A stretch of 64,000 nt of DNA from Bacteroidota bacterium (GTDB lineage: Bacteria; Bacteroidota; Bacteroidia; Bacteroidales; UBA4417): the NCBI GenBank assembly GCA_013376995.1, contig JACAAZ010000001.1, positions 294,957 through 358,956 on the forward strand, read 5' to 3'. This document shows positions 40,475-63,279 of the stretch, one piece after another (the stretch's first letter is position 1; every line of letters begins with the position of its first letter). The translations under genes and the position numbers were made by a program. Under the pieces are notes generated by a model. It searched no databases and was not told the origin of the DNA. It worked only from the letters and a program-made list of their open reading frames with translations.

Positions 40475-40489
40475 CACAATAAATGAAAA

Positions 40490-45192: not shown

Positions 45193-45528
45193 TTAGGGTC
45201 TGATAGCCATTACGACAATTGTCGAGTTATTGTCCACTGTTGCCATATCAGTACCATCTACAATACCATCTCCATTGATATCTTCGGAGTTGTAGCCGAA
45301 TAGAAGGAGAGTACTTGCATTATCGATGGAGGCCATATCTGAACCATCAACCACACTATCCTGGTTCGCATCTCCTCCATAAATTGCATAAACACTTCCC
45401 ATTTGTAACTGGTTACTGCCAAAAGCCTGAGCAGCCGACGTGCTGAAATTATAATTGATTGTATTTCCTGCAAAAGATACCGGTACAGCACTCCAGGTCT
45501 CAATACTGTTCCTGTGTTTCACAGTCAA
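45193..45528 (-). pseudogene. Dockerin-type Ca-binding repeat ORF, probably the 3' remnant of a larger secreted-protein gene
   Basis: Two EF-hand-like dockerin loops are present (GDANQDSVVDGSDMASIDN and DINGDGIVDGTDMATVDN). There is no signal peptide, only a TTG start, and only 111 nt of non-coding DNA upstream before the divergent tatA. Confidence 0.4.
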
Positions 45529-45639: not shown

Positions 45640-45816
45640 ATGGAAGGAATAAGTTTTCAGCACATCCTTTTAATACTGGTCATCGTTTTGTTACTCTTTG
45701 GCGGGAAAAAGATTCCTGAACTCATGAAAGGCCTTGGAAGTGGAATCAGGCAGTTCAAGGACGGTATGAATGGCAACGACCACGACAAAAAGCCTGACAG
45801 CGATACGGCAAAATAA
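45640..45816 (+). CDS. tatA: Twin-arginine translocase subunit TatA/E (58 aa)
   Basis: Below the 60-aa cut-off of the ORF track. My translation is [58 protein letters not shown]. The TM helix, FGxKK(I/L)PEL hinge and amphipathic helix are diagnostic. Confidence 0.85.
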
Positions 45817-45978: not shown

Positions 45979-46248
45979 TTAATTCGCAGATTTCAGGAAT
46001 GTCGCTATTTTCTTAACTTCCAGATCGGTGAGGCCAGCTTTGATCTTCATATGCCCCATGATTATATGCCACTGATCATCACTATAAGTTGCAGGGGAAG
46101 GTGCATTATGGCAGCGTGCACAATTTTCGCCCCAAAGCTGAGCTCCTGATTTATCAAGGATTGCCTGGGGCGTTTTACAAGCCGTGGCAATGAATATGGC
46201 AACGATTACTGACATTACAGCGAGAGTGATTATCTTCTGAGATTTCAT
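45979..46248 (-). CDS. Small monohaem c-type cytochrome lipoprotein (89 aa)
   Basis: Lipobox IATAC and haem motif CARCH. The start is moved to the ATG at 46248 (MKSQKIITLAV...), because the track's upstream extension overlaps the barrel gene. Confidence 0.7.
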   Translation of the reverse strand: MKSQKIITLAVMSVIVAIFIATACKTPQAILDKSGAQLWGENCARCHNAPSPATYSDDQWHIIMGHMKIKAGLTDLEVKKIATFLKSAN

Positions 46249-46267
46249 ATTTGTCTTTTTTAAGAAG

Positions 46268-47425
46268 TTAGAACCGGTAGATGGCTTGAAAAACAAACTG
46301 GTTTGCCGAGTAATTCTGTGTCTGGTAGGAGAACTTCAGTATACAATCCCATGCGAGCCAGTAGTTTAGGCTGTAAGCCATCTGGTGAATGGTATTTCCC
46401 AGGGACAAGTCAGAATAGGTAACAGCGTTTCCCCAGGGTGCATTTTCAGGAGTTGTGAAAGAAGAATACCTTGCAGATACTTCTAGATTATCAACAAACT
46501 GGCTTGTAAATCCGTTTGGGCGCAAACCACCCTGAATATACCAGGCTGAACTTTTATTGGTTGAGAAGGAACCTCCTTCATCAAAAGGATAGGTTGCTTT
46601 ATCAACGCTCATGGTCTTGTACTCGCCATATACCCTGACGATGCTCTTCAATGCAGGAATGTTATGATAGAAATTCAGGTCATAAGCCATCCAGTTAGCC
46701 CCGATTTTATTAAAAGGTGTATTGATATCACCGGTTTTAGATTTATGTAAAAGAGAAACTCCCAATTCAAGGCATGAATTGGAGAACGGCAGCAGGCCTA
46801 CCCTACCCCCGAACGCCATATTTTTATTGTTATTCAGAAAGCCTTCATATTCAAAGTTTCCGGCCATCGTTGCATCTTCTGCCAGCAACTGGGGACCATC
46901 AGACATATAGAAATCATAGTTCAGTTTTGAATATCCCAATTGCAATCCGCCAACTATACCGACTCCATTTTCAACCATGGGTCCTATTCCACCATCTCCG
47001 AAACCAACGGGATCTGTAGAAAAACGATTCAGGTAACCTTCACCCATCATACCCCGGTAATGGCCGAACTTTGGAAGAAAACGACCTGCATAAACCGTTA
47101 AATTGGGTAGTATCTGGTAGTTAAGATGAACCTGCTCCAGTCCAAAATCTGCAACTCCATCACGAGTTTCAATTTCAATCTCTGAAATCAGGAATAGCTT
47201 GTCTCCCAAACTAACAAGAGGGGCTATATGAAATTTTGCATTTTTGAACCCCATTTGACCTGAGTCAGCGACAAATTGCGTTTCAGCTCCTCCTGTCATC
47301 ATGAGTTTTTTGATTCCCCACATGGGGTTATTAGCTTCGGGTAAAGTTTGTAGCGTATCTTGAGCTACAGTGCTCAGTCCCAAAAGAAGGGAGATCGCCA
47401 TGACTAAATAGTAGCTTTTCTTCAT
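46268..47425 (-). CDS. Outer-membrane beta-barrel (porin-like) protein
   Basis: Signal peptide MKKSYYLVMAISLLLGLSTVAQ. Alternating hydrophobic/aromatic beta-strand pattern throughout. The C-terminal ...FQAIYRF is an OMP beta-signal with a terminal Phe. Confidence 0.7.
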   Translation of the reverse strand: MKKSYYLVMAISLLLGLSTVAQDTLQTLPEANNPMWGIKKLMMTGGAETQFVADSGQMGFKNAKFHIAPLVSLGDKLFLISEIEIETRDGVADFGLEQVHLNYQILPNLTVYAGRFLPKFGHYRGMMGEGYLNRFSTDPVGFGDGGIGPMVENGVGIVGGLQLGYSKLNYDFYMSDGPQLLAEDATMAGNFEYEGFLNNNKNMAFGGRVGLLPFSNSCLELGVSLLHKSKTGDINTPFNKIGANWMAYDLNFYHNIPALKSIVRVYGEYKTMSVDKATYPFDEGGSFSTNKSSAWYIQGGLRPNGFTSQFVDNLEVSARYSSFTTPENAPWGNAVTYSDLSLGNTIHQMAYSLNYWLAWDCILKFSYQTQNYSANQFVFQAIYRF

Positions 47426-47432
47426 AATTTTC

Positions 47433-47819
47433 TCATTTAGATATTCCATTAACTTTTTGTAATTCACGGATATAATTTACAAGGCTCCAGCGTTGAGTAT
47501 CAGTAATGACATAAGCAGGCATTGGAGCTTTTCCCTGCTTGATTTTCCAATAAAGAGATCCATCAGTACTTTGAGCAATTCGACTGGATAGCAGGTTACC
47601 AGGATGTGGAACCAGGCTGACTCCGGCAGGTCCATCACCTTTGCCTTTTGCACCGTGACACATCAGGCAGTACTTGGTGTAAAGATCGTTGCCTGCTTTA
47701 ATGTTAACCGGATCACTCTTCAAGGGGTTCTGAATGTTATCAGCTTCTTTAGGTGAATTCCAGGGGATCTTCTGTTGAAGACCCAGGAATAAAAATACCA
47801 GTATCAACGTTAGCTTCAT
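47433..47819 (-). CDS. Secreted class I c-type cytochrome (128 aa)
   Basis: Signal peptide present. CLMCHGAKGKGDGPAG haem site, with a distal Met in KAPMPAY. Confidence 0.8.
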   Translation of the reverse strand: MKLTLILVFLFLGLQQKIPWNSPKEADNIQNPLKSDPVNIKAGNDLYTKYCLMCHGAKGKGDGPAGVSLVPHPGNLLSSRIAQSTDGSLYWKIKQGKAPMPAYVITDTQRWSLVNYIRELQKVNGISK

Positions 47820-48161: not shown

Positions 48162-50858
48162 TCAGTTTTTGGTGTTTTTGCCAATCAACTGTTTAAGCAG
48201 TTCATTTTGAGCCTTTAATTCAGCTATAGATAGTTTAAGTTCATCGTTGATAATTTTTTGCTTTTCATTTTCAGCATTCAGTTCCTGCACAGCTTTTACA
48301 AGAGGAACCACGAACTGTGAATAGGCAACTCCATAATTCTGGTCTTTATTTTCAGGGATAATCACCCCGTCAAAATTAAAGCCTGTTTCCCTGGCTGCTG
48401 CTTCCACTTCCTGCGCCAGGAAACCACTGTGTACGATTTCTGATGAAGGACCATAGTCAAGAGTTTCCATTCTTGAGCTGCGGACACTGTCAGGCATGTT
48501 TTTCATCAGGAACTCATCAAATTTCCTGGTATCAAAGGTATAAGTCACAGGTCGAAGCTTGTTTATGAAAGCCAGCCCCTGAACATTTTCTTTTACATTA
48601 TCTTTAAACCTTGCATCAGATGGATAGGAATAGGCCACCTGGCCTTCTATTACTGAAACTGTTGTATTTCCAATCCTAACCTTCTGGCTGGCATTGACCT
48701 TGGCAGCATATCCAATGGCGGTAGCATTTATAAGTCCACCGGATGTCACATCAGCTCCCCAACCAATAGCAGTATTCCAGTTTCCACTTGTATTTGTAAA
48801 AAGCGTTTCTCTCCCAAAACCTGAATTGCCTGCACCTGATGTGTTGAAAACCAGTGCCTGGTATCCTGTTGCTGTATTGTTATCTCCTGAGGTATTAGCC
48901 CACATAGGCTGATAGCCAATTGCAGTATTGAAATTGCCGGTATTAATGGCGGGTGTAACTGAGCCGCGCAAAGCCTGGCATCCTACCGCGACATTGTAAT
49001 TGGTAAATGCCGTTGAAGTATTGTTTGAATAATACATGGCATATAACCCGATGGCTGTTGCATTGCTTCCAGCCACATTATTTACAAGTGTGCCGTACCC
49101 AATGGCTGTATTTGCATCTCCTGTTGTGTTGTAATATAATGCATTAAAACCGGTTGAAGTATTCTGGCTCCCTGAGTAGTTGCTGAAAGATGAAGAAAAT
49201 CCTACAGCAGTATTGCTGTTTCCGCCGTTATTTGAATATAATGAATTCACCCCCATCGCCGAATTATTGTACCCGGCAGTATTGGAAAAAAGTGAACCCA
49301 TGCCATGCGCGGTATTATAGTAGCCGGAGTTATTATGATAAAGAGCACTGCTTCCCGAAGCGGTATTGGAATATCCGCCATCATTGAAATACAGTGCCTG
49401 GTAACCGTTTGCAGTATTGTTACTCCCGCTTGAATTTGACCAGATGGTCTGGTAGCCAAGTGCTGTATTGTAGTTGCCGGTATTGCCGATAGTATTACCG
49501 TAGCCACGCAATGCTTCGTATCCAACAGCTACGTTATAACTTGTATAGGGCGTTTGAGTGCTGTATGCATTTGCCATTGCGTTGTACCCAACCGCTGTGG
49601 CATTGCTCCCGGTAAAACTAGAATTAAGTGCATTTTCTCCAATGGCTGTATTGGAACCACCAACTGTGTTATGATACATTGTATTGCTTCCGATCGAAGT
49701 GTTATCGGATCCGGTTGTATTGAAATAAAGTGAATAACTTCCGTTAGCTGTATTGTTGTTTCCGGTTGAATTTTTCATGATCGCCGAAAACCCTGTCGCA
49801 GTATTATTATTGCCTGTATTTGATGACGAATCAGAAGAACCCATCAATGCCTGGCATCCAATAGCTACGTTGTTATTGCTGAAGGGAGTTGCAGAACTGT
49901 TGGCGAAAAACATCGCATACGAGCCAACAGCAGTTGCATAGCTCCCAGCAATGTTTGTAGAAAGTGCCTTGGTACCGATAGCAACATTACCGTCGCCTGT
50001 TGTATTGTGGAATAAAGAGAACGATCCTAACCCAGTGTTTTTATTTCCTGTTGAATTATTATAAAGCACTGATTCGCCGACCCCGGAATTTTCATTTCCA
50101 ACAGTATTATAATATAATGCTGTACTCCCGAATGCACTGTTACTGGTTCCAGTTGAATTAGAAGCAAGTGAGGCGTTGCCGCTGGCTACATTGTACAGTC
50201 CAGTTAAGTTGGAGTATAAGGCAGCGTATCCGGTTGCAGTATTGTCAGTTCCCGTAGTGTTAAAGGACAATGACTGCATCCCGATTGCGGTATTATAATT
50301 ACCTGAAAGATTGTATCTTAAAGCATTGGAACCGATAGCCGTATTGTACATCCCGCTTGTATCAGTGATCAATGCCTTATATCCAAAAGCGGAATTGTGC
50401 ATTCCAGTGGTTAAAGAATTCAGTGTTTTGAATCCAAGTGAAGTGCTTGTTGTAATACTATCGACAATTCCGGCTTTTACATTATTTATCCTGAATTTCA
50501 AAGGTGACGCATCTGTCGTTCCGAGGAAATCAGTTGCCTGGTTTGTTCCACTGTTACCGGCAAGACTCCAGAATCTCCCGTTTCCTGCCATGACCCATAC
50601 GGGGCTTACTGAAGTCCCTGTATTAATATAGATGCCGGGGATGTTGTCGGTCTGAAAGATTGTCAAACCTGCAGCGGGTCCTACAATTGAATTTCGTTGT
50701 GCTACGGTCATTCTGGGCAGCAGTATGCCTTTTGCGGTGGATTTCACATCCAGTATTGCTGAATTATCAGGTGAAGAGCCATCTGTATTTATGGCGACCT
50801 GGGCCATAGCTATTAAATTTAACAGCAATAAAGCTGATGAAAAGAGCAGTCTTCTCAT
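48162..50858 (-). CDS. Secreted fibre protein: shared N-terminal module, about 17-aa Asn/Gly repeats, Peptidase S74-like intramolecular chaperone domain, coiled coil
   Basis: 898 aa. Signal peptide ...IAMAQ then [20 protein letters not shown]...[24 protein letters not shown]. Repeats are of NTAIGxxALxxNxxGxx type. The C-terminus has SDARFKDNV...GFLAQEVEAA followed by heptads. Confidence 0.85.
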   Translation of the reverse strand: MRRLLFSSALLLLNLIAMAQVAINTDGSSPDNSAILDVKSTAKGILLPRMTVAQRNSIVGPAAGLTIFQTDNIPGIYINTGTSVSPVWVMAGNGRFWSLAGNSGTNQATDFLGTTDASPLKFRINNVKAGIVDSITTSTSLGFKTLNSLTTGMHNSAFGYKALITDTSGMYNTAIGSNALRYNLSGNYNTAIGMQSLSFNTTGTDNTATGYAALYSNLTGLYNVASGNASLASNSTGTSNSAFGSTALYYNTVGNENSGVGESVLYNNSTGNKNTGLGSFSLFHNTTGDGNVAIGTKALSTNIAGSYATAVGSYAMFFANSSATPFSNNNVAIGCQALMGSSDSSSNTGNNNTATGFSAIMKNSTGNNNTANGSYSLYFNTTGSDNTSIGSNTMYHNTVGGSNTAIGENALNSSFTGSNATAVGYNAMANAYSTQTPYTSYNVAVGYEALRGYGNTIGNTGNYNTALGYQTIWSNSSGSNNTANGYQALYFNDGGYSNTASGSSALYHNNSGYYNTAHGMGSLFSNTAGYNNSAMGVNSLYSNNGGNSNTAVGFSSSFSNYSGSQNTSTGFNALYYNTTGDANTAIGYGTLVNNVAGSNATAIGLYAMYYSNNTSTAFTNYNVAVGCQALRGSVTPAINTGNFNTAIGYQPMWANTSGDNNTATGYQALVFNTSGAGNSGFGRETLFTNTSGNWNTAIGWGADVTSGGLINATAIGYAAKVNASQKVRIGNTTVSVIEGQVAYSYPSDARFKDNVKENVQGLAFINKLRPVTYTFDTRKFDEFLMKNMPDSVRSSRMETLDYGPSSEIVHSGFLAQEVEAAARETGFNFDGVIIPENKDQNYGVAYSQFVVPLVKAVQELNAENEKQKIINDELKLSIAELKAQNELLKQLIGKNTKN

Positions 50859-50958
50859 GGTTGCCAGATTTTATGAATGATATTTAATTTGTTAATCCTA
50901 ATTATAAAAGGACTCATATTTTCGTTTCTCCTCTATTCAAAATCGTTAAGCCTGATTT

Positions 50959-52461
50959 TCATTGACATCCGGCTTCATCAACCAACCCATTACAATTATC
51001 ATCTATTTTATTACCGCAGATTTCAACCGCTCCAGGGTGAATCGAGGGATTAGTATCATCACAATCACCCCCGGTTGCACTCCATCCAGGCAATATCGAA
51101 CACATGAGAACCATATTGAAGAAATTGCCGAAACCATCGCCGTCAAGGTCCTGGTAATAAGCAGTCCCGTCTTTTGTGGGCGCTTCGTCAACCAGGCCGT
51201 CACAATCATCATCTATTCCATTGCAGAACTCGTCAGCTCCCGGATGCCTGGCAGGATTGGTGTCATCGCAGTCAGTACCCACTTTAGCATATCCTGGAGG
51301 AGGAACACAACCTAAAGCCGTGATGGAGAGGTTCGGATTACCATAACCATCATTATCCTGGTCACGGTAGTAAGTCATGACAACAGAATAATTATCGTCA
51401 ATAATGCCGTTGCAGTCATTATCCAATCCGTCGCAAATTTCTGGAGCGCCGGGGTGAATACTGGCATAGTTGTCATTGCAATCCCCCGGATAAATTACAT
51501 ATCCTTGCGGGATAGGATTGCCACATTGCCAGATCATTGGAGAATTATAATCACCAAAACCATCTGCATCTAAATCTCGAAAAATGATTGATTGAAATTC
51601 GTCAACCTGTCCATTGCAATTATTGTCTATACCATCGCAGTATTCAACGAAGATACCCGGGTTTGCATAGTACTGGGAATCATTACAATCCGTATTATTG
51701 ATAACATAACCTGTTGGGACAGGATAACAAGATTGGATGGAAACTGCAGGATTACCATATCCATCATGGTCAGAGTCTAAATAAAACGTTGTTGTTTCAT
51801 CCACAATGCCATTGCAGTTATTATCAATTCCATCGCTTATTTCAGGGGCGCCGGGATAAACGAGTGGATTTGAGTCATTGCAGTCATTATTATTAGCTGA
51901 ATAACCTGTTGGTTGGTAACATAATTGGATTGTAGTTCCTGTTGGGCTTCCATGGCCATCTCCATCCGCGTCAATATAATAGGTGTTAGGAAATAGATTC
52001 CCGTAATAAGCATGGTCATCATCGGGGTCACAATCATTTGTTACATATCCTGCTGGTTTTACTGTGGAAAAGATTTGAGAAAAATGATTACCCAACGAAT
52101 CACCGTCTTTGTCAGCATAGAAATATTTAAAATTTGCAGGTTTCCACTGGGAACCGTCCCACACCAGCATATCCCCTACTGAATTCCCGGCTGTCATTGC
52201 TGTACCCAGCTTCAGCCATGCTGTCCCGCTGTAATAATCGAAGGTACCGGTTGAAGTATTAAAAACAATAAGGCCTGCTGCAGGTGATGCTATTGCATTT
52301 CTTTGGGAACTGGTCAAACGGGGTATTAGTATCCCTTTCGATGTGGATTTTACATCCAGCATGGCTGAATTATCAGGTTGAGTACCATCCGTACTAACTG
52401 CTACCTGGGAATGCACCGCAATTGCCGAGCAGACAAATATTATAAAAAGGAGTTTTTTCAT
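50959..52461 (-). CDS. Secreted protein: the same N-terminal module fused to seven or eight Cys-rich DxDxDG (MopE-like putative metal-binding) repeats
   Basis: The start is set at MKKLLFIIFVCSAIAVHSQ (ATG at 52461). The module reads [50 protein letters not shown]. Repeats follow the pattern D(A/S/Q)D(G/H/N)DG(H/Y/F)G...C..P.GY..N..DC(N/D)D....(Y/H)PGA.E.CDG.DN(N/D)CNG..DE. Confidence 0.8.
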   Translation of the reverse strand: MKKLLFIIFVCSAIAVHSQVAVSTDGTQPDNSAMLDVKSTSKGILIPRLTSSQRNAIASPAAGLIVFNTSTGTFDYYSGTAWLKLGTAMTAGNSVGDMLVWDGSQWKPANFKYFYADKDGDSLGNHFSQIFSTVKPAGYVTNDCDPDDDHAYYGNLFPNTYYIDADGDGHGSPTGTTIQLCYQPTGYSANNNDCNDSNPLVYPGAPEISDGIDNNCNGIVDETTTFYLDSDHDGYGNPAVSIQSCYPVPTGYVINNTDCNDSQYYANPGIFVEYCDGIDNNCNGQVDEFQSIIFRDLDADGFGDYNSPMIWQCGNPIPQGYVIYPGDCNDNYASIHPGAPEICDGLDNDCNGIIDDNYSVVMTYYRDQDNDGYGNPNLSITALGCVPPPGYAKVGTDCDDTNPARHPGADEFCNGIDDDCDGLVDEAPTKDGTAYYQDLDGDGFGNFFNMVLMCSILPGWSATGGDCDDTNPSIHPGAVEICGNKIDDNCNGLVDEAGCQ

Positions 52462-52477
52462 TCCAATCGGACTAAAA

Positions 52478-54802
52478 CTATTTATTCTCAACTTTTTCAA
52501 GACGCCTTGATAGATCGAGGTTTTCTTTTTTGAGCTCTTCTATCATAATTTGTTGCTCCTGTATGGCTTTCACCATAGGCGCAATAAGATCATTGTAACG
52601 CAAACTATACATCCCATCATCATCCTTCGTTATCATACCCGAATGGCTAGCCCCGGCATTCGTAAGTGTTTCTTCTACTTCCTGGGCAATAAAACCGTAT
52701 TCCGTCTTCTTTTTATCATCGTTAAGCCGGGTATAGGAAACCGGATTGAGATTTCTTATAAAATTCAGCCCAAGGTCTGATTTCTGAATATCCGATTTAT
52801 ACCTTTTATCTGATGTGATTGACCAACCAACCTGAATCCCGGCATAGCTAATCCCTGAATTTCCAATACGCACCTGGTCGTTGCCAGCTGAGTTCGGCAC
52901 CTGGGCGTCGTACCCTATGCCGATATTGTTTGATCCGGAAACATTCGAAAGTGCCCAAATTCCAAATGCTGAGTTGTTATTTCCACTAATATTATGCTGC
53001 ATCGCCTGGTATCCGTTAGCTGTATTCTGGCTCCCGCTATTATTATCCTGCATTGCCTGGTAACCTGTTGAGGTATTTGAATACCCCGAATTTGAAAAAA
53101 GCGCCTGGTAACCATAGCTTGAATTGTTATATCCCGCGGTATTCGTGTAAAGAGATTGGAAACCACTGGCTGTATTTCCATTACCTGATGTATTGGCTAG
53201 CATTGCCTGGTCACCAATTGCAGTATTCCATTGGCCTGTATTCAGCCATGTATAATTACCTCCTTTTAAAGATTCATAACCAAGGGCTGTGTTAAAGGTT
53301 TCCCGACCAGGGTTCCGATCGTCGGCATATTGCATGGATCCGGTCCCAATAGCTGTACTCCGGCTGTTCCCCCTGTTTGAACTGAGAGAACTCTCACCAA
53401 AAGCTACATTATAATTTCCCGATACGTTCTGGTTAAGAGAAAGAGAGCCGAACGCCGTATTATCGCTTCCTGTTATATTGGATCCCATTGACAAGTATCC
53501 AACGGCTGAATTGCTGCTGGCAGTCGTATTGTTGAACAAAGACCAATAACCGTTGGCAGTATTAAAGTTGCCAGTAGTATTGTAATTAAGAGATGCAATA
53601 CCGGATGCTGTATTGTAACTTCCAGTTGTATTTGAATGAAGCGTGCTGGAACCGACAGCCGTATTTTGATTTCCAGTGCTGTTGGAAAAGAGTGACTGAT
53701 AACCTACAGATGTATTTGAAGTCCCCGTAGTATTGGAAACCATCGCCTGGTCACCGACAGCTGTATTTGCTTTCCCGGTGTTGGCAGAAGGTAAAGTGCT
53801 GCCTTTCAGTGCTTCATAACCAACAGCAGTGTTAAAGGTTTCCAGTCCAACGATTCGATCATCTGCATAATACATAGCTGAAAATCCTATTGCTGTGCTT
53901 CTGCTGTTCGCCTTATTTGAATACAGGGATTGTGTTCCGCTGGCTGTGTTATTATTGCCTGTTATGTTGGCATAAAGTGCATATAACCCGTCGGCGGTGT
54001 TATTACTCCCTGTTGTATTATTTGCCAGAGCGCTGCCACCGGTTGCAGTATTCAGGAAACCTGTACTGTTGGAATGAAGTGCATAAATCCCGTTTGCGGT
54101 GTTTGCGTAACCGGTTGTGTTTGAATAAAGTGAAAAATACCCACTAGCTGTGTTATTAAATCCGGTTGTATTTGAAAAAAGAGACTCCTCCCCGCTTGCT
54201 ATATTATATGCACCTGTTGTATTATGATTTAGTGCATTAACCCCGATTGCAGTATTATAGCCTCCACTTGTATTTGAATATAGAGAACTATATCCAATAG
54301 CAGTGTTATTGATACCTGATGTGTTGAATAATAGTGAAACGCTTCCGATGGCTGTATTATTTGTTCCTGTATTTAAAGGGTTCAGTGCATTTACTCCAAA
54401 TGAAGTATTATTTAACCCGATATAACCGGATCTTTCATTATTTCTTTTAAAGATCATATCATTATTATCCGTAGTACCAAAAAAATTGGAAGCAGCATTC
54501 GTGCCGGCATTACCACTCAATCCCCATGTATTGGCCGTGCCCAGTTGAACCCATGCAGTACTGGTGCGGGTGAAAAGGCTGTTAACATCTGTATCGAACA
54601 CTACCAGGCCAGCAGCCGGGGCCACAATGGCATTGCGCTGCGCTGTTGTCATACGCGGCGGCAGAAAGCCTTTGACGGAGGATTTCACATCCAGCATGGC
54701 AGAATTATCGGGTAACGAGCCATCAGTATTAATAGCTACCTGGGCAGTTGAAACTGAAAAGAATATTATACCGGCCAGGAATAATAGAATTCCTTTTTTC
54801 AT
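52478..54802 (-). CDS. Secreted fibre protein paralog (774 aa) with shared N-module, Asn/Gly repeats, S74-like domain and coiled coil
   Basis: Signal peptide ...STAQ then [51 protein letters not shown]. The C-terminus has SDKRYKSDI...GFIAQEVEETL and EELKKENLDLSRRLEKVE. Confidence 0.85.
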   Translation of the reverse strand: MKKGILLFLAGIIFFSVSTAQVAINTDGSLPDNSAMLDVKSSVKGFLPPRMTTAQRNAIVAPAAGLVVFDTDVNSLFTRTSTAWVQLGTANTWGLSGNAGTNAASNFFGTTDNNDMIFKRNNERSGYIGLNNTSFGVNALNPLNTGTNNTAIGSVSLLFNTSGINNTAIGYSSLYSNTSGGYNTAIGVNALNHNTTGAYNIASGEESLFSNTTGFNNTASGYFSLYSNTTGYANTANGIYALHSNSTGFLNTATGGSALANNTTGSNNTADGLYALYANITGNNNTASGTQSLYSNKANSRSTAIGFSAMYYADDRIVGLETFNTAVGYEALKGSTLPSANTGKANTAVGDQAMVSNTTGTSNTSVGYQSLFSNSTGNQNTAVGSSTLHSNTTGSYNTASGIASLNYNTTGNFNTANGYWSLFNNTTASSNSAVGYLSMGSNITGSDNTAFGSLSLNQNVSGNYNVAFGESSLSSNRGNSRSTAIGTGSMQYADDRNPGRETFNTALGYESLKGGNYTWLNTGQWNTAIGDQAMLANTSGNGNTASGFQSLYTNTAGYNNSSYGYQALFSNSGYSNTSTGYQAMQDNNSGSQNTANGYQAMQHNISGNNNSAFGIWALSNVSGSNNIGIGYDAQVPNSAGNDQVRIGNSGISYAGIQVGWSITSDKRYKSDIQKSDLGLNFIRNLNPVSYTRLNDDKKKTEYGFIAQEVEETLTNAGASHSGMITKDDDGMYSLRYNDLIAPMVKAIQEQQIMIEELKKENLDLSRRLEKVENK

Positions 54803-54825
54803 AACTTATTGTATTAGAAAATAAT

Positions 54826-57444
54826 CTATTTTGATTTTTCTTCCAGCGCATTTAGCCTGCTCTCAAGCTGCAATATCTTTTCCTCTAGGGAACTTATTTT
54901 CGCCTTCGCTTCTTCAATAATAACCTGTTGTTCCTGGACTGATTTTACCAGCGGAACTGTAAAGCTTTCATAAGTAAGGCTGTAAGGTGTCTTATCATTA
55001 GCAGGCTTGTTAACACCGCTAAAATTGAAACCCGATTCAGATGCAGCTTTTTCTACCTGCTGTGCGAGGAAACCGGTATAAACAATTGATTCCTGTTTTG
55101 ACCTTGCATCTTTCATTATATCGTTGTTATATAAAGAGTCAGGTACTCCCCTGAAAGCATCAAGTTTTACAATATCCCATTGGTACGTAACAGGTTTTAA
55201 CTTTAGGATAAAATCAAGCCCTGGAACGTTTTCCTGGACATTCCTTTTGAAACGCTCATCAGAGATAGCGCTCCAGCCTACCTGTCCCCCTATCCAGGAA
55301 ACCGATGAACCACCAATATTGATGCAATTGCTTGAAGTAACATAAGCATTATTACCCAGCGCAGTAGTGTTGGAAAGCGCTGAACCTAGAGGACCGCAAC
55401 TATTGCCGATAGCGGTATTGTATGAACCTGAAAAATTATTGTTTAAAGCCTGGTTGCCATATGCTGTATTCTGACTACCCATGTTGTTGTTCATCAGGCA
55501 TTGGTATCCGACCGCTGTATTTGAATTACCCGAATTGTTGTTAAACTGTGACTGCACTCCAACTGCAGTATTCCACATTCCTGAAGAGTTATAATATAAT
55601 GTCTGAAAACCCAGGGCGGTATTACTATTGCCCGTATTGCTTGATGCGGATGCAGAGCCCCTTAATGCTTCAAAGCCAACCGCAACATTGAAATTGGTAT
55701 AGGGAGTACTTGAGCTATTTGAATAGTACATGGCCCTTTGACCTATGGCTGTTGCGGATGAACCAGCCATGTTAGAATAGAGAGATTCTAAACCGATTGA
55801 AACATTTTCACTTCCCACAGTATTTCCGTTCAGGGCCCAGCAACCGAGAGCAGTATTGCTGTTGCCGCTGATGTTATTAATCAAGGATCCAAGTGCAAAG
55901 GCTGCATTGGAACCTCCTGTTGTATTTTTCTTAAGTGCGGCAGCTCCGTAAGCAGTGTTGAAATCACCTGAACTGTTGGTATACATAGCCTGATAACCGG
56001 CTGCTGTGTTTGAAGATGCTGTAGAGTTGGAGAATAAAGACTGGTAACCCAGAGCAGTATTTTGATTCCCGGTGTTTGCAGATGCGGTAGTTGATCCTCG
56101 AAGTGCTTCAAATCCAATAGCTACATTGTCATTTTCAAAAGGAGTACTTGAATTATTGGAATAAATCATCGCATTGGTACCAATTGCCGTTGCATTCGAA
56201 CCTGCGACATTTGATAATAATGCCTGGTAGCCTATTACAACATTCTGATTTCCTGAGGTATTTGAAAATAATGGCTGGTAACCAACAGCAGTGTTGGATG
56301 TTCCGGTTGAGTTAAAAGTAAGAGAACCACTGCCAAGAGCTGTATTGTAATTCCCGCTCAGGTTATTATACAAACTCTGATTGCCAAATGCAGCATTCAG
56401 GCTACCAGTTGTGTTCGTGAAAAGTGAATAAGATCCTTCAGCAGTATTATTACTCCCGCCAGTACTGGAATAAAGAGAGTAAAATCCGTTTGCTGTATTA
56501 CCGTTTCCAGTCGTGTTATTATACAATGCCTGATTACCCGTAGAGGTGTTATTTGATCCGCTGGTATTGGACCATATGGATTGATAACCTATTGCAGTAT
56601 TACTTAACCCGGTATTGTTAGAAGCTACTGATGAACCTTTTAAAGCTTCATACCCGACAGCCACATTATTGTTGCTGAATGATGTCGTTTTATCGTTCGA
56701 ATTGTACATAGCCCTGGTACCTATGGCTGTCGCATATGAGCCTGCAACATTCGAAAAGAGGGATTGGTAGCCGAGTGAAAGATTGTTTGTACCGTTTACA
56801 TTGCTGAAAAGGGCATACATACCATAGCCGGTATTAAAATTCCCGGTAGAGTTGGAATAAAGCGATTGATAACCGCCAGCCGTGTTATAACTGCCGCTTG
56901 TATTTGAAAAAAGCGAAATAGCTCCGACAGCAACGTTATAAGATCCTGTAGTATTTGATGCAAGGGAATAATTCCCGAAGGCGGAATTATTAGAACCGGT
57001 GCCCGATGTATTTAAAGCACTAACACCAAATGAAGCAGATGCACCAAGTAACCCAGCCCTGATATTATTTCGTTTAAATATGAGGTCAACATCATCTGTG
57101 GTTCCCAAAAAATTTAATGTTGGGTTTATTCCACTGTTACCAGTCAGTTCCCATACGGATCCTTTTCCGTTTAAAGTCCATACAGGGCTTCCACTTGTTC
57201 CTGCATTGAAATATATACCCGGGGTATTATCCGTTTGAAATATTGTTAATCCCGCTGCAGGGCCGATCAAAGCGTTTCGCTGAGCCAGCGTCATCCTGGG
57301 TATCAATAAACCCTTTGATGAACTTGAAATATCAAGCATTGCTGAATTATCAGGCAATGAGCCATCAGTATTGATAGCTACCTGGGCTTTGGATAAAGAA
57401 AATAACAAAGAAAATGACAGGACTAAAAGTAAAAGTGCTTTCAT
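54826..57444 (-). CDS. Secreted fibre protein paralog (872 aa) with shared N-module, Asn/Gly repeats, S74-like domain and coiled coil
   Basis: Signal peptide ...LSKAQ then [51 protein letters not shown]. The C-terminus has SDERFKRNV...[10 protein letters not shown] and a heptad tail ([20 protein letters not shown]). Confidence 0.85.
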
Positions 57445-57577: not shown

Positions 57578-57585
57578 CAAATGTA
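57578..57585 (-). promoter_or_regulatory. Candidate -7 box (TACATTTG on the minus strand) for the fibre gene array
   Basis: The plus strand reads caaatgta, 134 nt upstream of the ATG at 57444. It is the only TAnnTTTG match I saw in the proximal part of the 495-bp spacer. Confidence 0.25.
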
Positions 57586-57961
57586 GGAATTTATATATGT
57601 ATATAATATTTAAAATAATCAGATACATCATGCAATTTTAAGGAATATAAGAAGGGTTAGACTTGAAGGATCTCTTTGAATAACTGATCAGCGTTGATTC
57701 TTAATCATTCAGATGTAAAAAGATACATATCTAAAATATTTTTTAATACTTTTGCTATCGTAAGGAGAATACTGGTTTTCATAAAGGTTTTTCCTTCCTT
57801 TATTTCGAAATCTTCCCCTCCAATTTCGAATAATGAAATGTGCTGTTGTGTAAAAAGGAATTATCCTGATGCTCTCAGCATAAAGATGATTACTAATAAG
57901 CCTTAGATCAATTAAAAGTTATAAGTATAATTATTCCATCTTGGATACTAACAATACTTCG

Positions 57962-60550
57962 ATGAACAAAACAGTTACTATTGTCCTGCTTGTTATCCTC
58001 CCTATACTATTACAGGCCCAGGTAAAAATTCTTTTCAATGCCAATAAAGCTGAAACAGCTGGCAGTGCAGACTGGGTAATTGATGCAGATTCGCACAATC
58101 TCGGATATGGAACTGGCCCTGCAGTATTGGGCGGAGGCACTGAATCAAATGCACAGCGGTATCCAACTCCTGACCAGTCCACAGTTACTGCTTCCACCGG
58201 CGAAACCTACTGGCAGGGGGCAATTTCTGCATGGGGTATTGACTGCAGGAAACAGGGCTATACTGTTGAAACCCTGCCCTACAATGGTTCAATTACCTAT
58301 GGAAACAGCAGCAACGCACAGGACCTGAGTAATTATAAAGTATTCATTGATTGTGAACCTAACATTGTATATACGGCCGCGGAAAAGACAGCAATCATGC
58401 AATTTGTTCAAAACGGAGGCGGGCTTTTCATGGTTTCAGATCATAATGGCTCTGACCGAAACAGCGATGGCTGGGATTCTCCTGCAATCTGGAATGACCT
58501 GATGAGCAATAATGGCATTGCCACAAATCCTTTTGGAATCACATTTGACTTGGTCAGTATATCTCAAACGACTACCAACATCCCCAATCTTCCAAATGAC
58601 CCGATTCTTCATGGTATTATGGGTGACGTAACTGCAGCAATGTGGAGTGCCGGAACAACCATGACAACAAGTACAGCCGCCAACAGCTCTGTTCTTGGGA
58701 TAATCTATAAGACCGGGTCTTCCTTTGGAAGCACAAATGTGATGTTTGCTTATGCCAGTTATGGCAATGGAAGAGTAGCAGCAATCGGAGATAGTTCTCC
58801 GTGTGATGATGGAACGGGTGATTCGAATGACGTTCTATATAACGGGTGGACAGGCGATGCTAATGGAAACCATGAACGACTTATTATGAATGCCACCATC
58901 TGGTTGGCTTCTTCAAGCTCTGCCTCCACTTTATCAGTTACTCCGTCAAACCAGGCAGTTTCTCCTCAGGCTGGATCCACCAGCTTCAATGTAACATCGA
59001 ATGCAAATTGGTCAGTCAGCAGTAGCCAAAGCTGGTGCACCTTGGGCTCGTCTTCAGGAAGCAATAATGGAACAATAACTGCAAATTTCACTCAGAATAC
59101 AACAAATGCTTCCAGGACGGCAAATATCATCGTTACTGTAACCGGCCTGACACCCGTTACTGTTACAGTTACCCAGGCCGCTCCTACCCTTTCTGTTACA
59201 CCTTCCAGCCAGAGTGTTTCTGTTGCTTCAGGAACAACTCCGTTCACAGTAACTTCTAATTCATCCTGGACAGCCAGCAGCAATCAAAGCTGGTGCACAG
59301 TAACTCCGTCTGGTACCGGAAATGGCACTGTTACAGCAACCTATTCCCTCAATAATACAGCAGCCTCCAGGACCGCCAATATTACGGTAACAGTCACCGG
59401 TTTAACTCCTGTAGTAGTTACCGTAACCCAGGCAGCTCCTACTCTATCTGTAACTCCTGCTAATCAAAATGTTTCTGTTGCTTCAGGAAGTACTTCCTTT
59501 TCAGTAACATCAAATACTTCATGGTCAGCTTCCAGCAGCCAGGCCTGGTGCACAGTCACAACATCAGGTTCCGGAAACGGTACCATAACGGCTAATTTAA
59601 CTCAAAATACTACATCAACTTCAAGAAGTGCAAATGTAACCGTAACTGTTAGCGGACTTTCTCCTGTAATTGTAACTGTAACTCAGGCAGCACCAACCTT
59701 ACAGGTTACTCCTTCAAACCAGGATGTTGGTGTAGCAGCTGGATCTGTTTCATATTCCATTACTTCCAACACTTCCTGGACCATTTCAAGCAATCAGAGT
59801 TGGTGCACTGTAACTTCTCCCGGATCAGGCAATGGAAGTTTCAGTGCCAACTACTCTCAGAACAGCACTGGATCATCCAGGATGGCAACTATTACGGTAA
59901 ATTCTCCAGGTCTTACTCCAGTAGACGTTACTTTAACTCAAGCTGCTCCTGATATCACAATATCTCCATCTAATCAGGATGTTACCGATGCAGCAGGGAC
60001 AGCCAATTTCTCAATTGTATCAAATACTGACTGGAGTGCCAGTAGTAATCAGCCCTGGTGCACTGTTGTTTCTTCGGGTTCAGGTGATGCAACTCTCACT
60101 GCTTCTTATGCACAAAACACTACTACTAATTCCAGGATCTGCACTATATCCATTCTGGTAAGTGGTTTATCGCCTGTCACAGCAACAATAACACAGGCTG
60201 GAATGGCACTGGCACTGGAACCAACTAATTTCCCAACTGATTTCTCAGCTCATAATATTCACATTCAATGGATTGATGCTACAGGAATTGTTGCGCCTAC
60301 AGGATATCTTGTGAGGATGAGCAGTGTCAGCTATTCTGATATACAGGTTCCACAGGACGGTGTTCCTGTTGCGAACAGTTTTTCGGATAAAAATGTTGCA
60401 TCCGGAATCCAGGAAGTATGGTTTAAAAATCTGATTCCAAATACAACCTATTATTTTAAGATTTTCGAATATATAGGTACAGGCAACACTATCAACTACA
60501 AAACTGATGGTGTGATTCAGCAGGTATCTGCTTCTACGGGCCCTTTATAG
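57962..60550 (+). CDS. Secreted multidomain protein: ThuA/amidotransferase-like N-domain, five BACON domains, C-terminal FN3-like domain
   Basis: The start is set at the ATG at 57962 (MNKTVTIVLLVILPILLQAQ). The N-domain contains VFIDCEPN...FVQNGGGLFMVSDHNGSDRN. There are five 85-aa repeats with the BACON pattern ...NxxW...S..xWCT......G.G........N.....R.A.I.V. Confidence 0.8.
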   Translation: MNKTVTIVLLVILPILLQAQVKILFNANKAETAGSADWVIDADSHNLGYGTGPAVLGGGTESNAQRYPTPDQSTVTASTGETYWQGAISAWGIDCRKQGYTVETLPYNGSITYGNSSNAQDLSNYKVFIDCEPNIVYTAAEKTAIMQFVQNGGGLFMVSDHNGSDRNSDGWDSPAIWNDLMSNNGIATNPFGITFDLVSISQTTTNIPNLPNDPILHGIMGDVTAAMWSAGTTMTTSTAANSSVLGIIYKTGSSFGSTNVMFAYASYGNGRVAAIGDSSPCDDGTGDSNDVLYNGWTGDANGNHERLIMNATIWLASSSSASTLSVTPSNQAVSPQAGSTSFNVTSNANWSVSSSQSWCTLGSSSGSNNGTITANFTQNTTNASRTANIIVTVTGLTPVTVTVTQAAPTLSVTPSSQSVSVASGTTPFTVTSNSSWTASSNQSWCTVTPSGTGNGTVTATYSLNNTAASRTANITVTVTGLTPVVVTVTQAAPTLSVTPANQNVSVASGSTSFSVTSNTSWSASSSQAWCTVTTSGSGNGTITANLTQNTTSTSRSANVTVTVSGLSPVIVTVTQAAPTLQVTPSNQDVGVAAGSVSYSITSNTSWTISSNQSWCTVTSPGSGNGSFSANYSQNSTGSSRMATITVNSPGLTPVDVTLTQAAPDITISPSNQDVTDAAGTANFSIVSNTDWSASSNQPWCTVVSSGSGDATLTASYAQNTTTNSRICTISILVSGLSPVTATITQAGMALALEPTNFPTDFSAHNIHIQWIDATGIVAPTGYLVRMSSVSYSDIQVPQDGVPVANSFSDKNVASGIQEVWFKNLIPNTTYYFKIFEYIGTGNTINYKTDGVIQQVSASTGPL
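58927..60202 (+). repeat. Five tandem 255-bp coding repeats (BACON domains)
   Basis: Each repeat runs from (T/S)L(S/Q)VTPS(N/S)Q to VT(V/L)TQAAP. The boundary segments are recognisably similar at the nucleotide level. Confidence 0.85.
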
Positions 60551-60552
60551 GG

Positions 60553-63030
60553 TTAAGCCTTTAGTTGCTTTCTGACGGATTGGAAATCAAGGTAATAAAG
60601 CAGGCGAATGGAAAAGCTATTAGCCTGGTCCGATCTCATTGTATTTGCAAAGTCTTCTGCATAGCCCAGGTGAATTACCTCGTCACTGGAATTTATTGAG
60701 TTTTTCCACACCATACTGAGCTCGCTGCCAGGTGCAAAATACCAGACAAATTGCAAGTCTGCAGAAAAAGCATTGAAACTTTCATTCGGCAGATTTATTG
60801 AGTTATTTCGAGTTAACAATCCTTCCTGATCCAGCCTGTAGTAATCAAGAAACTCAACTCTTGACCAGTAATGGCGTCCTCGCAGGTTAAGAGATGACTT
60901 TGTATTAAATACATACTTGAAATTCACAATATTGCTAACAGTTAAAACATTTCTTCTTGCAAAATAAATTATGGGATCCTGAATACTGTCGAATAAAGTT
61001 TTGGCCCATCCATAGTCATTATGACTATCCAAATAACTTCCGGTCAATGTAACTGAGAATCTGTCAGAAAACCGCATCCTGAGAATAGTTTCGATATTCC
61101 AGCCTGTACCGCTGTTTCCCGGGGTTGAGGATAATCCAAAACTATTGTGGATCCTGAATTTTTTACGGGAATCAGATGCAATTCGCCAATTCAGGTAGGA
61201 AGATGCAGGTCTCTTATATTTCCAGCCCCAGGTCCTGGGTTCATAATAATCAGTTACGCCATCAGGAGTCACTCCTACCTCAATGTAATCAGCCCAATAG
61301 TTGTGAAATGTCATATAATTATCAGCCACCAGTTGATAGCTTATCAAATCATTCGGACTGCTTAAGGTTTTATACACCATAAGAATATCAGATTGCATGG
61401 ATTGCCATATCCACACAGGGTCAAAGACCAGGTGAGATAAACGGAGGGAATTGTTTACTTCATTATTGTTTGAAATGTACCCCATGTCATTTGGATCGTA
61501 ACGTTTATCCATAGCATCTCTCTGTAATTCATACTGGAATTTCCCCCTCGGTTTTGAGATGGAAACCAGGTACCTGCTTCCTGTTTCTTTCTTACCATCC
61601 TGATCAACAACCTGGCTCACATTCAGCCTTCCGAGAAATGAGAATGAACTTTTCTTATTATTCAGCCTGGTTTCTGCTCCGGTGACATTCGAATGATAGT
61701 GGTTCCGGGGCATCCAGTAATTAGTATTAATTATGGTAGCATATGAATTATGCTTAAGGTTTTGATCAACCACCATCACATTGTAATTTGTAAATTCCTG
61801 GGTGCGGATCTTCCTGCTGGAATTATCTGTAGTATCGAGCAGCTTTGCATCAGCCGGAGAGGTTATGGCATTAAAAAATCCTATCCCCAATCCTTTACTG
61901 TTTCTTCCTGATATTTTAGTAGCATTTAGGATACTCGTTTCTTCGGGATTCTCATTGATGACTTCATTCACTCTGGCTTCATAATAGGGTCGATAAAAGT
62001 CGCGGGGAATCGAGCCGATTCTTCTTGAATAGAATAATCCGCATTTATTGAAGAGCTCAGTCCCTTCTGTAAAGAACTGTCGCTTTTCATCATATCTAAC
62101 TTCGAAGGGCGTGAGGTTAAGAATTACATCATCCGATTGAACCTGTCCAAAATCAGGTATCAGCATCATATCAACCGTATAGCTTTCGTTAATTCCCCAT
62201 TTGAGGTCCAGTCCCCCTCTGCCGGAATATTTCCAACCGGTTACTTCAGGGCTGTTTTCAATGTATCCAGCTACATAAGGAGTTATTGACAATCTGACTG
62301 GAGGGTCAATATTCCTGATGCCTGTAATTGTGCCATAATATTTGAAAATATCCTGGTCCTGGTTGTCGATGTATGACCAGGTAGAGAATTCTCTTCTCCG
62401 CTGAAAGTTGCGCCAAAGGTTAAATCCCCATTTCTGCTCGGCAATTCGCGGGAACCTGAGTGCAGACCAGGGAATACGAACTTCAGCAATCCATGATGAA
62501 TCTGTTATCAGGGTAGCACTTTCCCAGACAGCATCCCAATTCAGGTCAGTTCCGATTGCTGAATATTTGCAATCATTCTGAAGATTGGCGGGTGTTACTT
62601 TGAATTCATACATATTCAGCCCGTCATTGTAAGGAAGAATATCAAAAGATATGTAATCCGTATTAAGTGATTCAACCTGGTCCCGTTTGCCAAATTCCTT
62701 GCAAATGCTGTCAGGATGGCTGTCCAACATCTCAGCAGCTATGTAGACCGCATCATTGTCATATGCCAGTTTAACCCTGGTTTGATTAGCCGGGCTGGAA
62801 CCATTATAAGGAGCATATACAATGAAATTACCTGCTACAGGCAGGTTCTCCCATACCTTATCATCGAGTTTACCATCGATTTTAGGAGGCATACTAATAT
62901 AGGATGCCTCATAATTTTTCTTTTCCCTTTCAGGTTTCCCTGCATTTGAAGCATATGCGGATACAGTGTTTATAACAGGAAGTAAAAGCAGTAACAATGG
63001 CAGCTGTTTGAATAGAATGTGGGTCCTCAT
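60553..63030 (-). CDS. CBM9-like / DUF5916 family outer-membrane-associated protein
   Basis: The start is set at the ATG at 63030 (MRTHILFKQLPLLLLLLPVINTVSAYA). The N-terminal PPKIDGKLDDKVWENLPVAGNFIVYAPYNG...AYDNDAVYIAA is the CBM9/DOMON-like signature. A long beta-rich C-terminal region follows. The stop is 2 nt from the convergent BACON gene stop. Confidence 0.7.
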   Translation of the reverse strand: MRTHILFKQLPLLLLLLPVINTVSAYASNAGKPEREKKNYEASYISMPPKIDGKLDDKVWENLPVAGNFIVYAPYNGSSPANQTRVKLAYDNDAVYIAAEMLDSHPDSICKEFGKRDQVESLNTDYISFDILPYNDGLNMYEFKVTPANLQNDCKYSAIGTDLNWDAVWESATLITDSSWIAEVRIPWSALRFPRIAEQKWGFNLWRNFQRRREFSTWSYIDNQDQDIFKYYGTITGIRNIDPPVRLSITPYVAGYIENSPEVTGWKYSGRGGLDLKWGINESYTVDMMLIPDFGQVQSDDVILNLTPFEVRYDEKRQFFTEGTELFNKCGLFYSRRIGSIPRDFYRPYYEARVNEVINENPEETSILNATKISGRNSKGLGIGFFNAITSPADAKLLDTTDNSSRKIRTQEFTNYNVMVVDQNLKHNSYATIINTNYWMPRNHYHSNVTGAETRLNNKKSSFSFLGRLNVSQVVDQDGKKETGSRYLVSISKPRGKFQYELQRDAMDKRYDPNDMGYISNNNEVNNSLRLSHLVFDPVWIWQSMQSDILMVYKTLSSPNDLISYQLVADNYMTFHNYWADYIEVGVTPDGVTDYYEPRTWGWKYKRPASSYLNWRIASDSRKKFRIHNSFGLSSTPGNSGTGWNIETILRMRFSDRFSVTLTGSYLDSHNDYGWAKTLFDSIQDPIIYFARRNVLTVSNIVNFKYVFNTKSSLNLRGRHYWSRVEFLDYYRLDQEGLLTRNNSINLPNESFNAFSADLQFVWYFAPGSELSMVWKNSINSSDEVIHLGYAEDFANTMRSDQANSFSIRLLYYLDFQSVRKQLKA

Positions 63031-63279
63031 AGTAATATCCCTTTTAGAAAGCTGGAAGATTATGCATAACGACAAATTTAGCCGGAAGCAAAAGTTGTGG
63101 AAAATGTATTCTGTGTAGGTTTGGATTCCTTCGTCATATCATTCTTTTCTATCGGTCATTACAATATTTTCCTGGGTTCAGGCTGGAGATGTTGAAAACT
63201 CCTGATATTAATTCGATATTAATTATATATTAATTTCCCTATTTTCGCAGTTGATTCTTTACAACTAATAATATTATCC

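Follow-up and report, generated by a model that had tools for sequence, protein, structure and literature searches.

A four-gene array of predicted secreted, phage-tail-fiber-like proteins in a Bacteroidales genome and the PTL_trimer family to which it belongs

Why would a bacterial chromosome carry, side by side, four genes whose products share one N-terminal module, and of which three end in a phage-type intramolecular chaperone? The question is raised by a 64,000-nt stretch of the genome of a Bacteroidota bacterium of the order Bacteroidales (contig JACAAZ010000001.1, positions 294,957 to 358,956), which was analyzed as a whole and is hereafter called the window. Four consecutive open reading frames (ORFs), all intact and all on the minus strand, span window positions 48162-57444; we name them A to D, with D the most upstream. 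Their domains, catalytic residues, signal-peptide pattern, paralogue repertoire and chromosomal context are described below. Taken together with analogy to characterized systems, these sequence features make it fairly probable, in our judgment, that the array encodes paralogous, Sec-exported, homotrimeric proteins resembling phage tail fibers, which belong to a large family centered on the Bacteroidota and likely serve as an adhesive or recognition repertoire on the cell surface or on vesicles. Within a family that is very large and already catalogued, the locus itself, with its four genes, is nothing out of the ordinary.

The ORF list places 23 nt between D and C, 16 nt between C and B, and 100 nt between B and A, in agreement with an initial annotation of this DNA that had reported four same-strand genes with gaps of 16-100 nt. 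The features of the array are as follows, from upstream to downstream.

54826-57444, minus strand: gene D, 872 aa, encoding a signal peptide, then the PTL_trimer module, a body of 17-aa repeats with three inserts, and an S74 domain
57385-57444, minus strand: D signal peptide, residues 1-20, predicted cleavage between A20 and Q21, read from the sequence
57166-57384, minus strand: D PTL_trimer module, residues 21-93, from alignment and an hmmsearch match
55264-57165, minus strand: D repeat body with a 17-residue Asn/Gly/Thr period; 49-aa inserts at 56593-56739, 56053-56199 and 55615-55761
54829-55263, minus strand: S74 intramolecular chaperone of D, with self-cleavage predicted before S728, K733 as catalytic partner, and a 145-aa C-terminal piece that would be set free
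52478-54802, minus strand: gene C, 774 aa, with the architecture of D and two inserts
54743-54802, minus strand: C signal peptide, residues 1-20, predicted cleavage between A20 and Q21
54539-54742, minus strand: C PTL_trimer module, residues 21-88, examined by AlphaFold2 (AF2) model and Foldseek
52814-54538, minus strand: C repeat body, inserts at 53759-53905 and 53219-53365
52481-52813, minus strand: C S74 chaperone domain, S664/K669, 111 aa
50959-52461, minus strand: gene B, 500 aa when counted from the ATG (in the ORF list its start is an upstream TTG at 52500)
52408-52461, minus strand: B signal peptide, predicted cleavage between S18 and Q19
52204-52407, minus strand: B PTL_trimer module
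about 50962-52029, minus strand: B Cys-rich MopE-type repeats, matched by the Cu-binding_MopE profile
48162-50858, minus strand: gene A, 898 aa, with the architecture of D and three inserts
50802-50858, minus strand: A signal peptide, residues 1-19, predicted cleavage between A19 and Q20
50583-50801, minus strand: A PTL_trimer module, residues 20-92
48621-50582, minus strand: A repeat body, inserts at 49797-49943, 49461-49607 and 48921-49067
48165-48620, minus strand: A S74 chaperone domain, S747/K752, 152 aa

The leaders of A-D are rich in Lys and Arg and then hydrophobic; position -3 is taken by a small residue, position -1 by Ala or Ser and position +1 by Gln, a pattern that supports Sec-dependent export of all four. 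The initial annotation had put the cut before Gln, which holds in every protein (A19/Q20 in A, S18/Q19 in B, A20/Q21 in C and D), although its notation, in which MAQ was followed by the cleavage bar and then V, set the bar one residue too late. A census of 72 sequences was assembled, consisting of 70 related loci, the window and its own source contig. Across 213 related ORFs, the first position of the module is Gln in 198, and the residue at -1 is Ala or Ser in 191, whereas internal copies of the module usually begin with Gly rather than Gln (72/120). On this distribution, the conserved Gln is to be regarded as part of the signal-peptidase site and lies outside the domain proper.

Scans of A-D against Pfam and NCBIfam returned no type IX secretion system (T9SS) C-terminal domain (CTD), no YadA anchor and no NCBIfam match at E<=0.1, and none of the four cleavage sites holds a Cys; the absence of T9SS CTD, lipobox and autotransporter barrel that had been reported from the sequence is upheld. 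A T9SS CTD (Por_Secre_tail or CHU_C) was likewise found in 0 of 88 related module proteins that lack an S74 domain, and identity as T9SS cargo was rejected for A-D and these 88 proteins. A 596-aa protein encoded at 33135-34925 (minus strand), which also carries CBM96 and four PKD domains, served as a positive control: it matches Por_Secre_tail at E 4.9e-9. Since this protein bears Por_Secre_tail, the organism uses a T9SS, and since it was detected in the same window, the scan works when a CTD is present. A 14-residue stretch of the N-terminal module (residues ~39-52, e.g. in D) resembles the T9SS CTD of RgpB (PDB 5hfs_A), but the match (E 1.1) is not significant and was taken as chance.

At the other end of A, C and D, the domain first read as Peptidase S74-type is borne out by profile scores. 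Peptidase_S74 (PF13884) matches A with 35.2 bits (E 1.6e-8), C with 53.3 bits (E 3.4e-14) and D with 35.7 bits (E 1.1e-8) against a cut-off of 22 bits, and gives no match in B. The catalytic motif reads SDARFK in A, SDKRYK in C and SDERFK in D, the Lys standing five residues after the Ser; in C these are S664 and K669, neither of which varies among 57 homologues. When the C-terminal 110 residues of an AF2 model of C were compared with solved structures using Foldseek, they matched the MyRF ICA domain (7dc3), the endoNF chaperone (3gw6), GA-1 (3gud) and the T5 fiber (4uw8) with a probability of 0.94-1.0, and the model has a C-terminal helix at residues 736-773. Judged by profile, catalytic pair and modeled fold, the domain of A, C and D is a bona fide S74 intramolecular chaperone and protease. 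By analogy with characterized S74 proteins, cleavage would fall before S747 of A, S664 of C and S728 of D.

Between the module and the chaperone lies a long repeat body. Autocorrelation peaks occur at lags of 17, 34, 51 and 68 residues in A, C and D, the DNA of the body has a 51-nt period, and a conserved 49-aa insert interrupts the repeat three times in A, twice in C and three times in D. Both the 17-residue period and the two or three interruptions are therefore as originally described. The accompanying description of the repeat as YadA-head-like has to be given up: YadA_head and Hep_Hag gave no match in A, C or D at E<=0.1, two distant relatives alone giving weak matches, and the body instead fits phage families, namely the tail-spike PHROG 4636 and the virion structural PHROGs 23837 and 6002, with E-values of 1e-65 to 1e-98. 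The tail-spike match reaches E 1.9e-98 for A and E 2e-91 for D. In the AF2 model of C, the body contributes one short strand per 17 residues. Given neither a YadA anchor nor a YadA_head match at this threshold, identity as trimeric autotransporters was rejected. Recent gene conversion or invertible switching within the array was also rejected; the DNA repeats are just 60-78% identical, and no meaningful inverted repeats were found.

These PHROG tail-spike matches could be taken to mean that the fibers are secreted, tailspike-like polysaccharide depolymerases, used for nutrient acquisition or matrix remodeling rather than for adhesion. S74 chaperones are typical of endosialidases and other depolymerizing tailspikes, one related module protein matches Phage_depo_C, and carbohydrate-binding neighbors with BACON, CBM9 and CBM96 domains fit the same picture. 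However, A-D match no glycosidase or lyase family, their body is a short, regular 17-residue repeat rather than a large catalytic beta-helix, and the Foldseek matches to the HK620 and P22 tailspikes and to the FdlA lyase have a probability of <=0.2. The non-S74 paralogues, moreover, bear lectin-like rather than enzymatic modules. We regard a depolymerase function as improbable.

The module that follows the signal peptide was found in all four proteins, as initially reported. It is ~68-73 aa long, 33 of 73 alignment columns are invariant, and the other copies are 57-74% identical to that of A, B's being the most divergent. It is also a catalogued domain. A precomputed match to PF26696 (PTL_trimer) is on record for protein B, the same match is found in all 120 listed matches (short homologues) of a profile search with the module, and most, though not all, full-length homologues of C bear it. 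The assignment was made from precomputed matches; membership of A, C and D follows from module identity, because the precomputed match is recorded for B alone. A literature search for 'PTL' or PF26696 returned nothing relevant. With a profile of the four window modules, the number of matching representative clusters (50% identity) was 48,487 under a threshold of E<=1e-3, and 27,356 under one of E<=1e-10. Every one of the 145 best-scoring representatives contains 2-11 copies of the module, including copies at internal and C-terminal positions: in P0241 (4,024 aa), nine modules are accompanied by an S74 domain, and P0259 (506 aa) contains nothing besides a signal peptide, four modules in tandem and the S74 domain into which they run. 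In P0143, the module occurs together with collagen repeats. The window is matched by a 56.9-kb contig assembled from SRR12042537. The closest relatives of the window modules belong to metagenome-assembled genomes (MAGs) of Lentimicrobiaceae and other Bacteroidales. The module is used well outside the Bacteroidota, since the multi-copy protein P0250 comes from an Alphaproteobacteria MAG.

Giant proteins of 1,700-4,000 aa with 5-9 internal PTL_trimer modules (P0241, P0242, P0250, P0260 and P0300) were also seen, and the N-termini of such multi-module proteins (e.g. GNIFFVLFGAVAVVGLLG) are unlike Bacteroidota signal peptides. Short proteins that had seemed to be stand-alone modules were discarded as a class, as alignment shows many of them to be truncated or frameshifted fragments.

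The AF2 model of C's module, with a predicted local distance difference test score (pLDDT) above 95 in the core, consists of short strands and one helix. Its best PDB matches by Foldseek, weak but consistent in that all are to trimerization modules, are the trimeric CBA120 tailspikes TSP3 and TSP4, the collagen XV/XVIII trimerization domains, Mtd and HylP; the match to PDB 7rej covers TSP4 residues 1-335. Among the predicted viral structures in BFVD, 20 proteins match the module at E<=1e-3, with up to 51% identity; among them are phage proteins with collagen repeats and others labeled 'tail fiber-like' or 'intramolecular chaperone'. Searching the PDB by sequence brought up no relative of known structure for either the N-terminal module or protein C. 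In deposited phage genome records the module was found in 3 of 50,697, and a scan of IMG/VR with window-module patterns gave no confirmed match. In Leptolyngbya phage Lbo-JY46 (PP438436.1, 92284-93426), it forms the C-terminus of a 380-aa hypothetical cyanophage protein. In the 735-kb uncultured phage records LR756501.1/LR756503.1, it lies unannotated at 395049-395204.

Because the module is catalogued, occurs in multiple copies and at internal positions, is present in phage fibers, and has a predicted fold like that of small trimerization domains, we suggest that it is best read as a reusable trimerizing building block rather than as a dedicated docking adaptor. The initial annotation had proposed a common N-terminal adaptor; the shared module stands, but its profile search leads to PF26696, with several copies per protein and internal positions, and not to a novel docking domain.

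The adaptor idea can be put in a stronger form: the module, whether as an adaptor dedicated to docking or as a sorting signal of a new kind, would fix all four proteins to one outer-membrane or surface partner, trimerization being secondary. The first module directly follows the signal peptide in the window proteins and in 213 related ORFs, and the N-terminus is the attached end in phage S74 fibers. The authors who described the mosaic adhesive trimer (MAT) family of Bdellovibrio bacteriovorus propose an anchoring role of this kind for its N-terminal domain (PMC10769870). Another route of export or attachment is also needed, given that none of the 88 non-S74 members has a T9SS CTD while their neighbors often do. 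Against this, the module recurs (2-11 copies per protein), lies at internal and C-terminal sites, and is also present in the Alphaproteobacteria protein and in phage proteins without a signal-peptide context; its modeled fold matches trimerization knots, and no conserved partner gene was found beside the arrays. The docking and trimerizing roles are not mutually exclusive, and the N-terminal copy may form the cell-proximal, attached end by analogy with the MAT fibers; as the primary function of the module, we think docking unlikely.

Under the preferred reading, in which the proteins are exported trimeric fibers, assembly would proceed as follows. Signal peptidase I would cut after Ala or Ser at a site recognized from the sequence pattern, leaving Gln at +1, which might become pyroglutamate. 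Outside the cytoplasm, three chains would be put in register at both ends, by the PTL_trimer module acting as a small trimerization knot at the N-terminus and, in A, C and D, by the S74 domain at the C-terminus, which would serve the beta body of 17-residue repeats as intramolecular chaperone. The Ser/Lys pair (S747/K752 in A, S664/K669 in C, S728/K733 in D) would then cut the chaperone off, as expected from the phage endosialidase, T5 and Bdellovibrio Bd3182 proteins, and release a fragment of 111-152 residues. A stable fiber of ~640-730 residues per chain would remain, with the new C-terminus as its distal end. In B, a presumed non-fiber paralogue, the same N-terminal trimerizer would present a Cys-rich body of MopE repeats, and in related arrays the non-S74 members would present Fib_succ_major or Lcl_C lectin-like tips.

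The family of relatives is extensive. A search with protein C returned at least 7,946 homologues, typically of PF26696 plus PF13884 architecture, which carry names such as 'tail fiber domain-containing protein' (NCBI) and 'trimeric autotransporter adhesin' (JGI); Lacibacter sediminis (P0131) is a cultured carrier of a C homologue. The 72 sequences of the census contain 228 module-bearing ORFs, 112 with and 116 without an S74 domain, arranged in tandem and nearly all on one strand. Such arrays occur in Lentimicrobiaceae and other Bacteroidales genomes. The largest have 12 genes (L055), 11 genes (L006, L017 and L025) and 10 genes (L010), and single Bacteroidales MAGs hold more than 25 paralogues. 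The arrangement in the window is thus commonplace, given this number of close homologues and arrays of up to 12 genes. Gene B also has its parallels. Its product contains five Cu-binding_MopE stretches (E 3e-59) and 22 cysteines and lacks an S74 domain, and among the 88 related non-S74 members, Fib_succ_major (15) and Lcl_C (13) are found beside PKD, MopE and other bodies. One related locus (L011) echoes the window, with three S74 genes, a MopE gene and the same C-terminal motif.

Could the array instead be a set of spare or decayed tail fibers belonging to a prophage, a tailocin or an extracellular contractile injection system (eCIS) at some other place in the genome? Body and chaperone do share homology with virion proteins of phages, and eCIS fibers with S74 domains are known in the Bacteroidota, e.g. 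in Microscilla (PMC12923769). All four proteins, however, have cleavable signal peptides, whereas phage and eCIS fibers assemble in the cytoplasm, and the ORFs are intact. A Pfam scan of the window, covering ORFs of at least 120 aa without overlap by a longer ORF, plus one smaller ORF, detected no gene for a capsid, portal, terminase, sheath, baseplate or integrase. The genes scanned are of housekeeping and envelope type and encode, among other products, ClpB, an acyl-CoA dehydrogenase with electron transfer flavoprotein, RecN, photolyase, glutamine synthetase III, a phosphate ABC transporter, glycosyltransferases, transaldolase, c-type cytochromes, a five-BACON protein and a DUF5916/CBM9 protein. 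Among 122 neighbors of the arrays in 50 related loci, no phage structural family is present in the 25 most frequent of 149 Pfam families. The original placement of the locus outside any prophage agrees with both surveys. The rarity of the module among deposited phage genomes points the same way, and we consider a prophage, tailocin or eCIS origin highly improbable.

The families that do recur among the 122 neighbors are Por_Secre_tail (12, the most frequent), GerE/LuxR (7) and CHU_C (3). When neighbors were clustered, propeller-type sensor histidine kinases were found in 12 loci, dockerin-like proteins in 10 and LuxR-type response regulators in 8; a TPR histidine kinase stands beside fiber arrays in 4 loci. 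These kinase and LuxR neighbors hint at regulated expression of the arrays. Arrays flanked by kinases or regulators include L011, L012, L018, L023, L045, L057, L062 and L071; no such pair was found in the window.

Surface display has to be argued indirectly, as no export or anchoring partner recurs beside the arrays. The proteins might accordingly stay inside the outer membrane, as periplasmic or vesicle cargo that serves, for example, as structural or envelope-spacing elements. Such a location would suit proteins in which no known outer-membrane export signal was found and arrays to which no exporter is linked. On the other hand, the adhesin-type tips on paralogues (Lcl_C, Fib_succ_major, PKD) suggest an external target, and the MAT fibers, built on a like principle, are exposed on the cell surface. 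A Tannerella forsythia protein comparable by its name, 'tail fiber domain-containing protein', and with a predicted outer-membrane location was detected in outer-membrane vesicle preparations (PMC10682907). We consider retention behind the outer membrane to be quite unlikely.

Several other features of the locus and its surroundings were recorded. The Bacteroidetes -7 promoter consensus is TAnnTTTG. The sequence TACATTTG at 57578-57585 (minus strand), 134 nt upstream of D's ATG, fits it and lies within a 496-nt intergenic region common to gene D and the BACON gene; because chance alone would yield ~0.2 matches of this kind per strand, it is weak evidence for a promoter. The BACON gene (57941-60550, plus strand), upstream of D and divergent from it, encodes an 869-aa protein with an N-terminal region of ~330 aa without a Pfam match followed by five BACON domains, and is adjoined by the gene for the CBM9/DUF5916 protein (60553-63075, minus strand). 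The same pair stands beside the array on the source contig (L001), which is not independent evidence because it is the same DNA.

Directly downstream of A lies a cluster on the minus strand (45979-47819). It comprises a c-type cytochrome gene (47433-47819), a gene for a 399-aa protein of porin-like appearance with a signal peptide and no Pfam match (46268-47467, minus strand), and a gene for a 105-aa CxxCH protein (45979-46296, minus strand). A TatA gene follows at 45640-45816 (plus strand). An ORF of 111 aa at 45193-45528 (minus strand) has a weak Dockerin_1 match (E 1.5e-4) and looks like a short remnant; it clusters with proteins of ~490 aa with dockerin-like C-termini that are encoded between or right after the fiber genes in 10 loci (e.g. 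L012:8403-9887, L033:12148-13638, L036:12124-13638 and L045:12747-14180). A single tRNA-Lys (UUU) gene is located at 40402-40475 (plus strand), with no integrase or repeat adjoining it.

The reading of the array as exported, trimeric, adhesive fibers has to be set against several points that weigh on the other side. In the Bacteroidota, the family is known from sequences and models alone, and the AF2 runs, from which trimerization would have to be judged, were made on monomers. The full-length monomer model of C is of moderate quality (pLDDT 72, with the inserts below 50), and the PDB fold matches of the N-terminal module are weak (E 0.1-0.5). For PF26696, the argument draws on the short name of the family. 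Any kinship between the PTL_trimer module and the MAT N-terminal domain is hypothetical. Finally, a conserved exporter or anchor gene was not found beside the arrays in the related loci.

Bacteroidota are thought to place most of their large surface proteins outside the cell via the T9SS or as surface lipoproteins. The PTL_trimer family, with tens of thousands of clusters, is very abundant and has neither a T9SS signal nor a lipoprotein signal, and it appears to rely, outside the cytoplasm, on the S74 chaperone, a folding device of phages. Should the fibers be exposed on the surface, an unrecognized route of export or attachment would exist in the Bacteroidota, and the same question arises for the MAT fibers. 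Arrays with swappable lectin-like tips are candidate attachment determinants in sludge, sediment and gut communities. A far-reaching extension would make the PTL_trimer/S74 proteins Bacteroidota-wide, T9SS-independent surface fibers, in which the N-terminal module both trimerizes and fixes the fiber to an envelope component or exporter, and the expanded arrays, sometimes beside propeller-type sensor kinases and LuxR-type regulators, form a switchable repertoire for attachment to other cells or particles, as a non-predatory counterpart of the MAT system. We put this forward as speculation that is, as a whole, rather doubtful. The interest of the family is general rather than specific to the window, and lies in the surface route of tens of thousands of fibers and in their expansion to dozens of paralogues in some Bacteroidales.

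How does the array compare with known systems? The phage endosialidase and T5 L-shaped fiber chaperones (PF13884; 3GW6, 4UW8) share with A, C and D the Ser/Lys pair, the helical tail and the fold. The window proteins differ in being predicted Sec-exported products of chromosomal genes away from virion genes, so that folding would occur outside the cytoplasm. Trimeric autotransporters of the YadA type also have short Asn/Gly-rich repeats and a presumed trimeric adhesin role, but the window proteins have no YadA anchor barrel or YadA_head match, and their C-terminus is an S74 chaperone. Legionella Lcl is a secreted trimeric collagen-like adhesin (PMC11162425). In Lcl and in collagens XV/XVIII, as proposed for the window proteins, a small trimerization module sets the register of a repetitive stalk with a binding domain. 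Thirteen related PTL_trimer proteins have Lcl_C as their tip, and the model of the N-terminal module resembles the multiplexin trimerization domain, weakly (E 0.16-0.9); the window proteins themselves lack collagen repeats and Lcl_C.

The closest characterized system, as far as architecture can be compared from sequence, is the MAT family of B. bacteriovorus (Caulton et al. 2024; PMC10769870). Each of its 21 paralogues has a signal peptide and, N-terminally, a beta-rich domain that is invariant among them; 13 end in S74 and 8 have other tips (TNF-like, C-type lectin and beta-sandwich). Self-cleavage of the MAT S74 domain at the serine of SDxxxK has been demonstrated, and the fibers are trimeric over their whole length, stand on the cell surface and bind prey (PMC10769870). 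The trimeric fiber of the initial annotation remains the most reasonable reading of the window proteins, as a surface fiber family for which a parallel, the MAT system, is already published. The two differ in several respects. MAT belongs to another phylum, and the link to predation is its own; its N-terminal domain is ~130 aa and beta-rich, as opposed to the ~68-aa PTL_trimer module, which is also internal and multi-copy; and the body in the window consists of Asn/Gly repeats at a regular spacing of 17 residues, interrupted by 49-aa inserts, and is encoded by genes in tandem arrays. In both families, nevertheless, a signal peptide directly precedes an N-terminal domain conserved across paralogues, S74 and non-S74 paralogues with varied tips occur side by side (here A, C and D versus B), and a long body related to phage tail fibers, a trimeric beta-fiber shown for MAT and predicted here, is found in many paralogues per genome.

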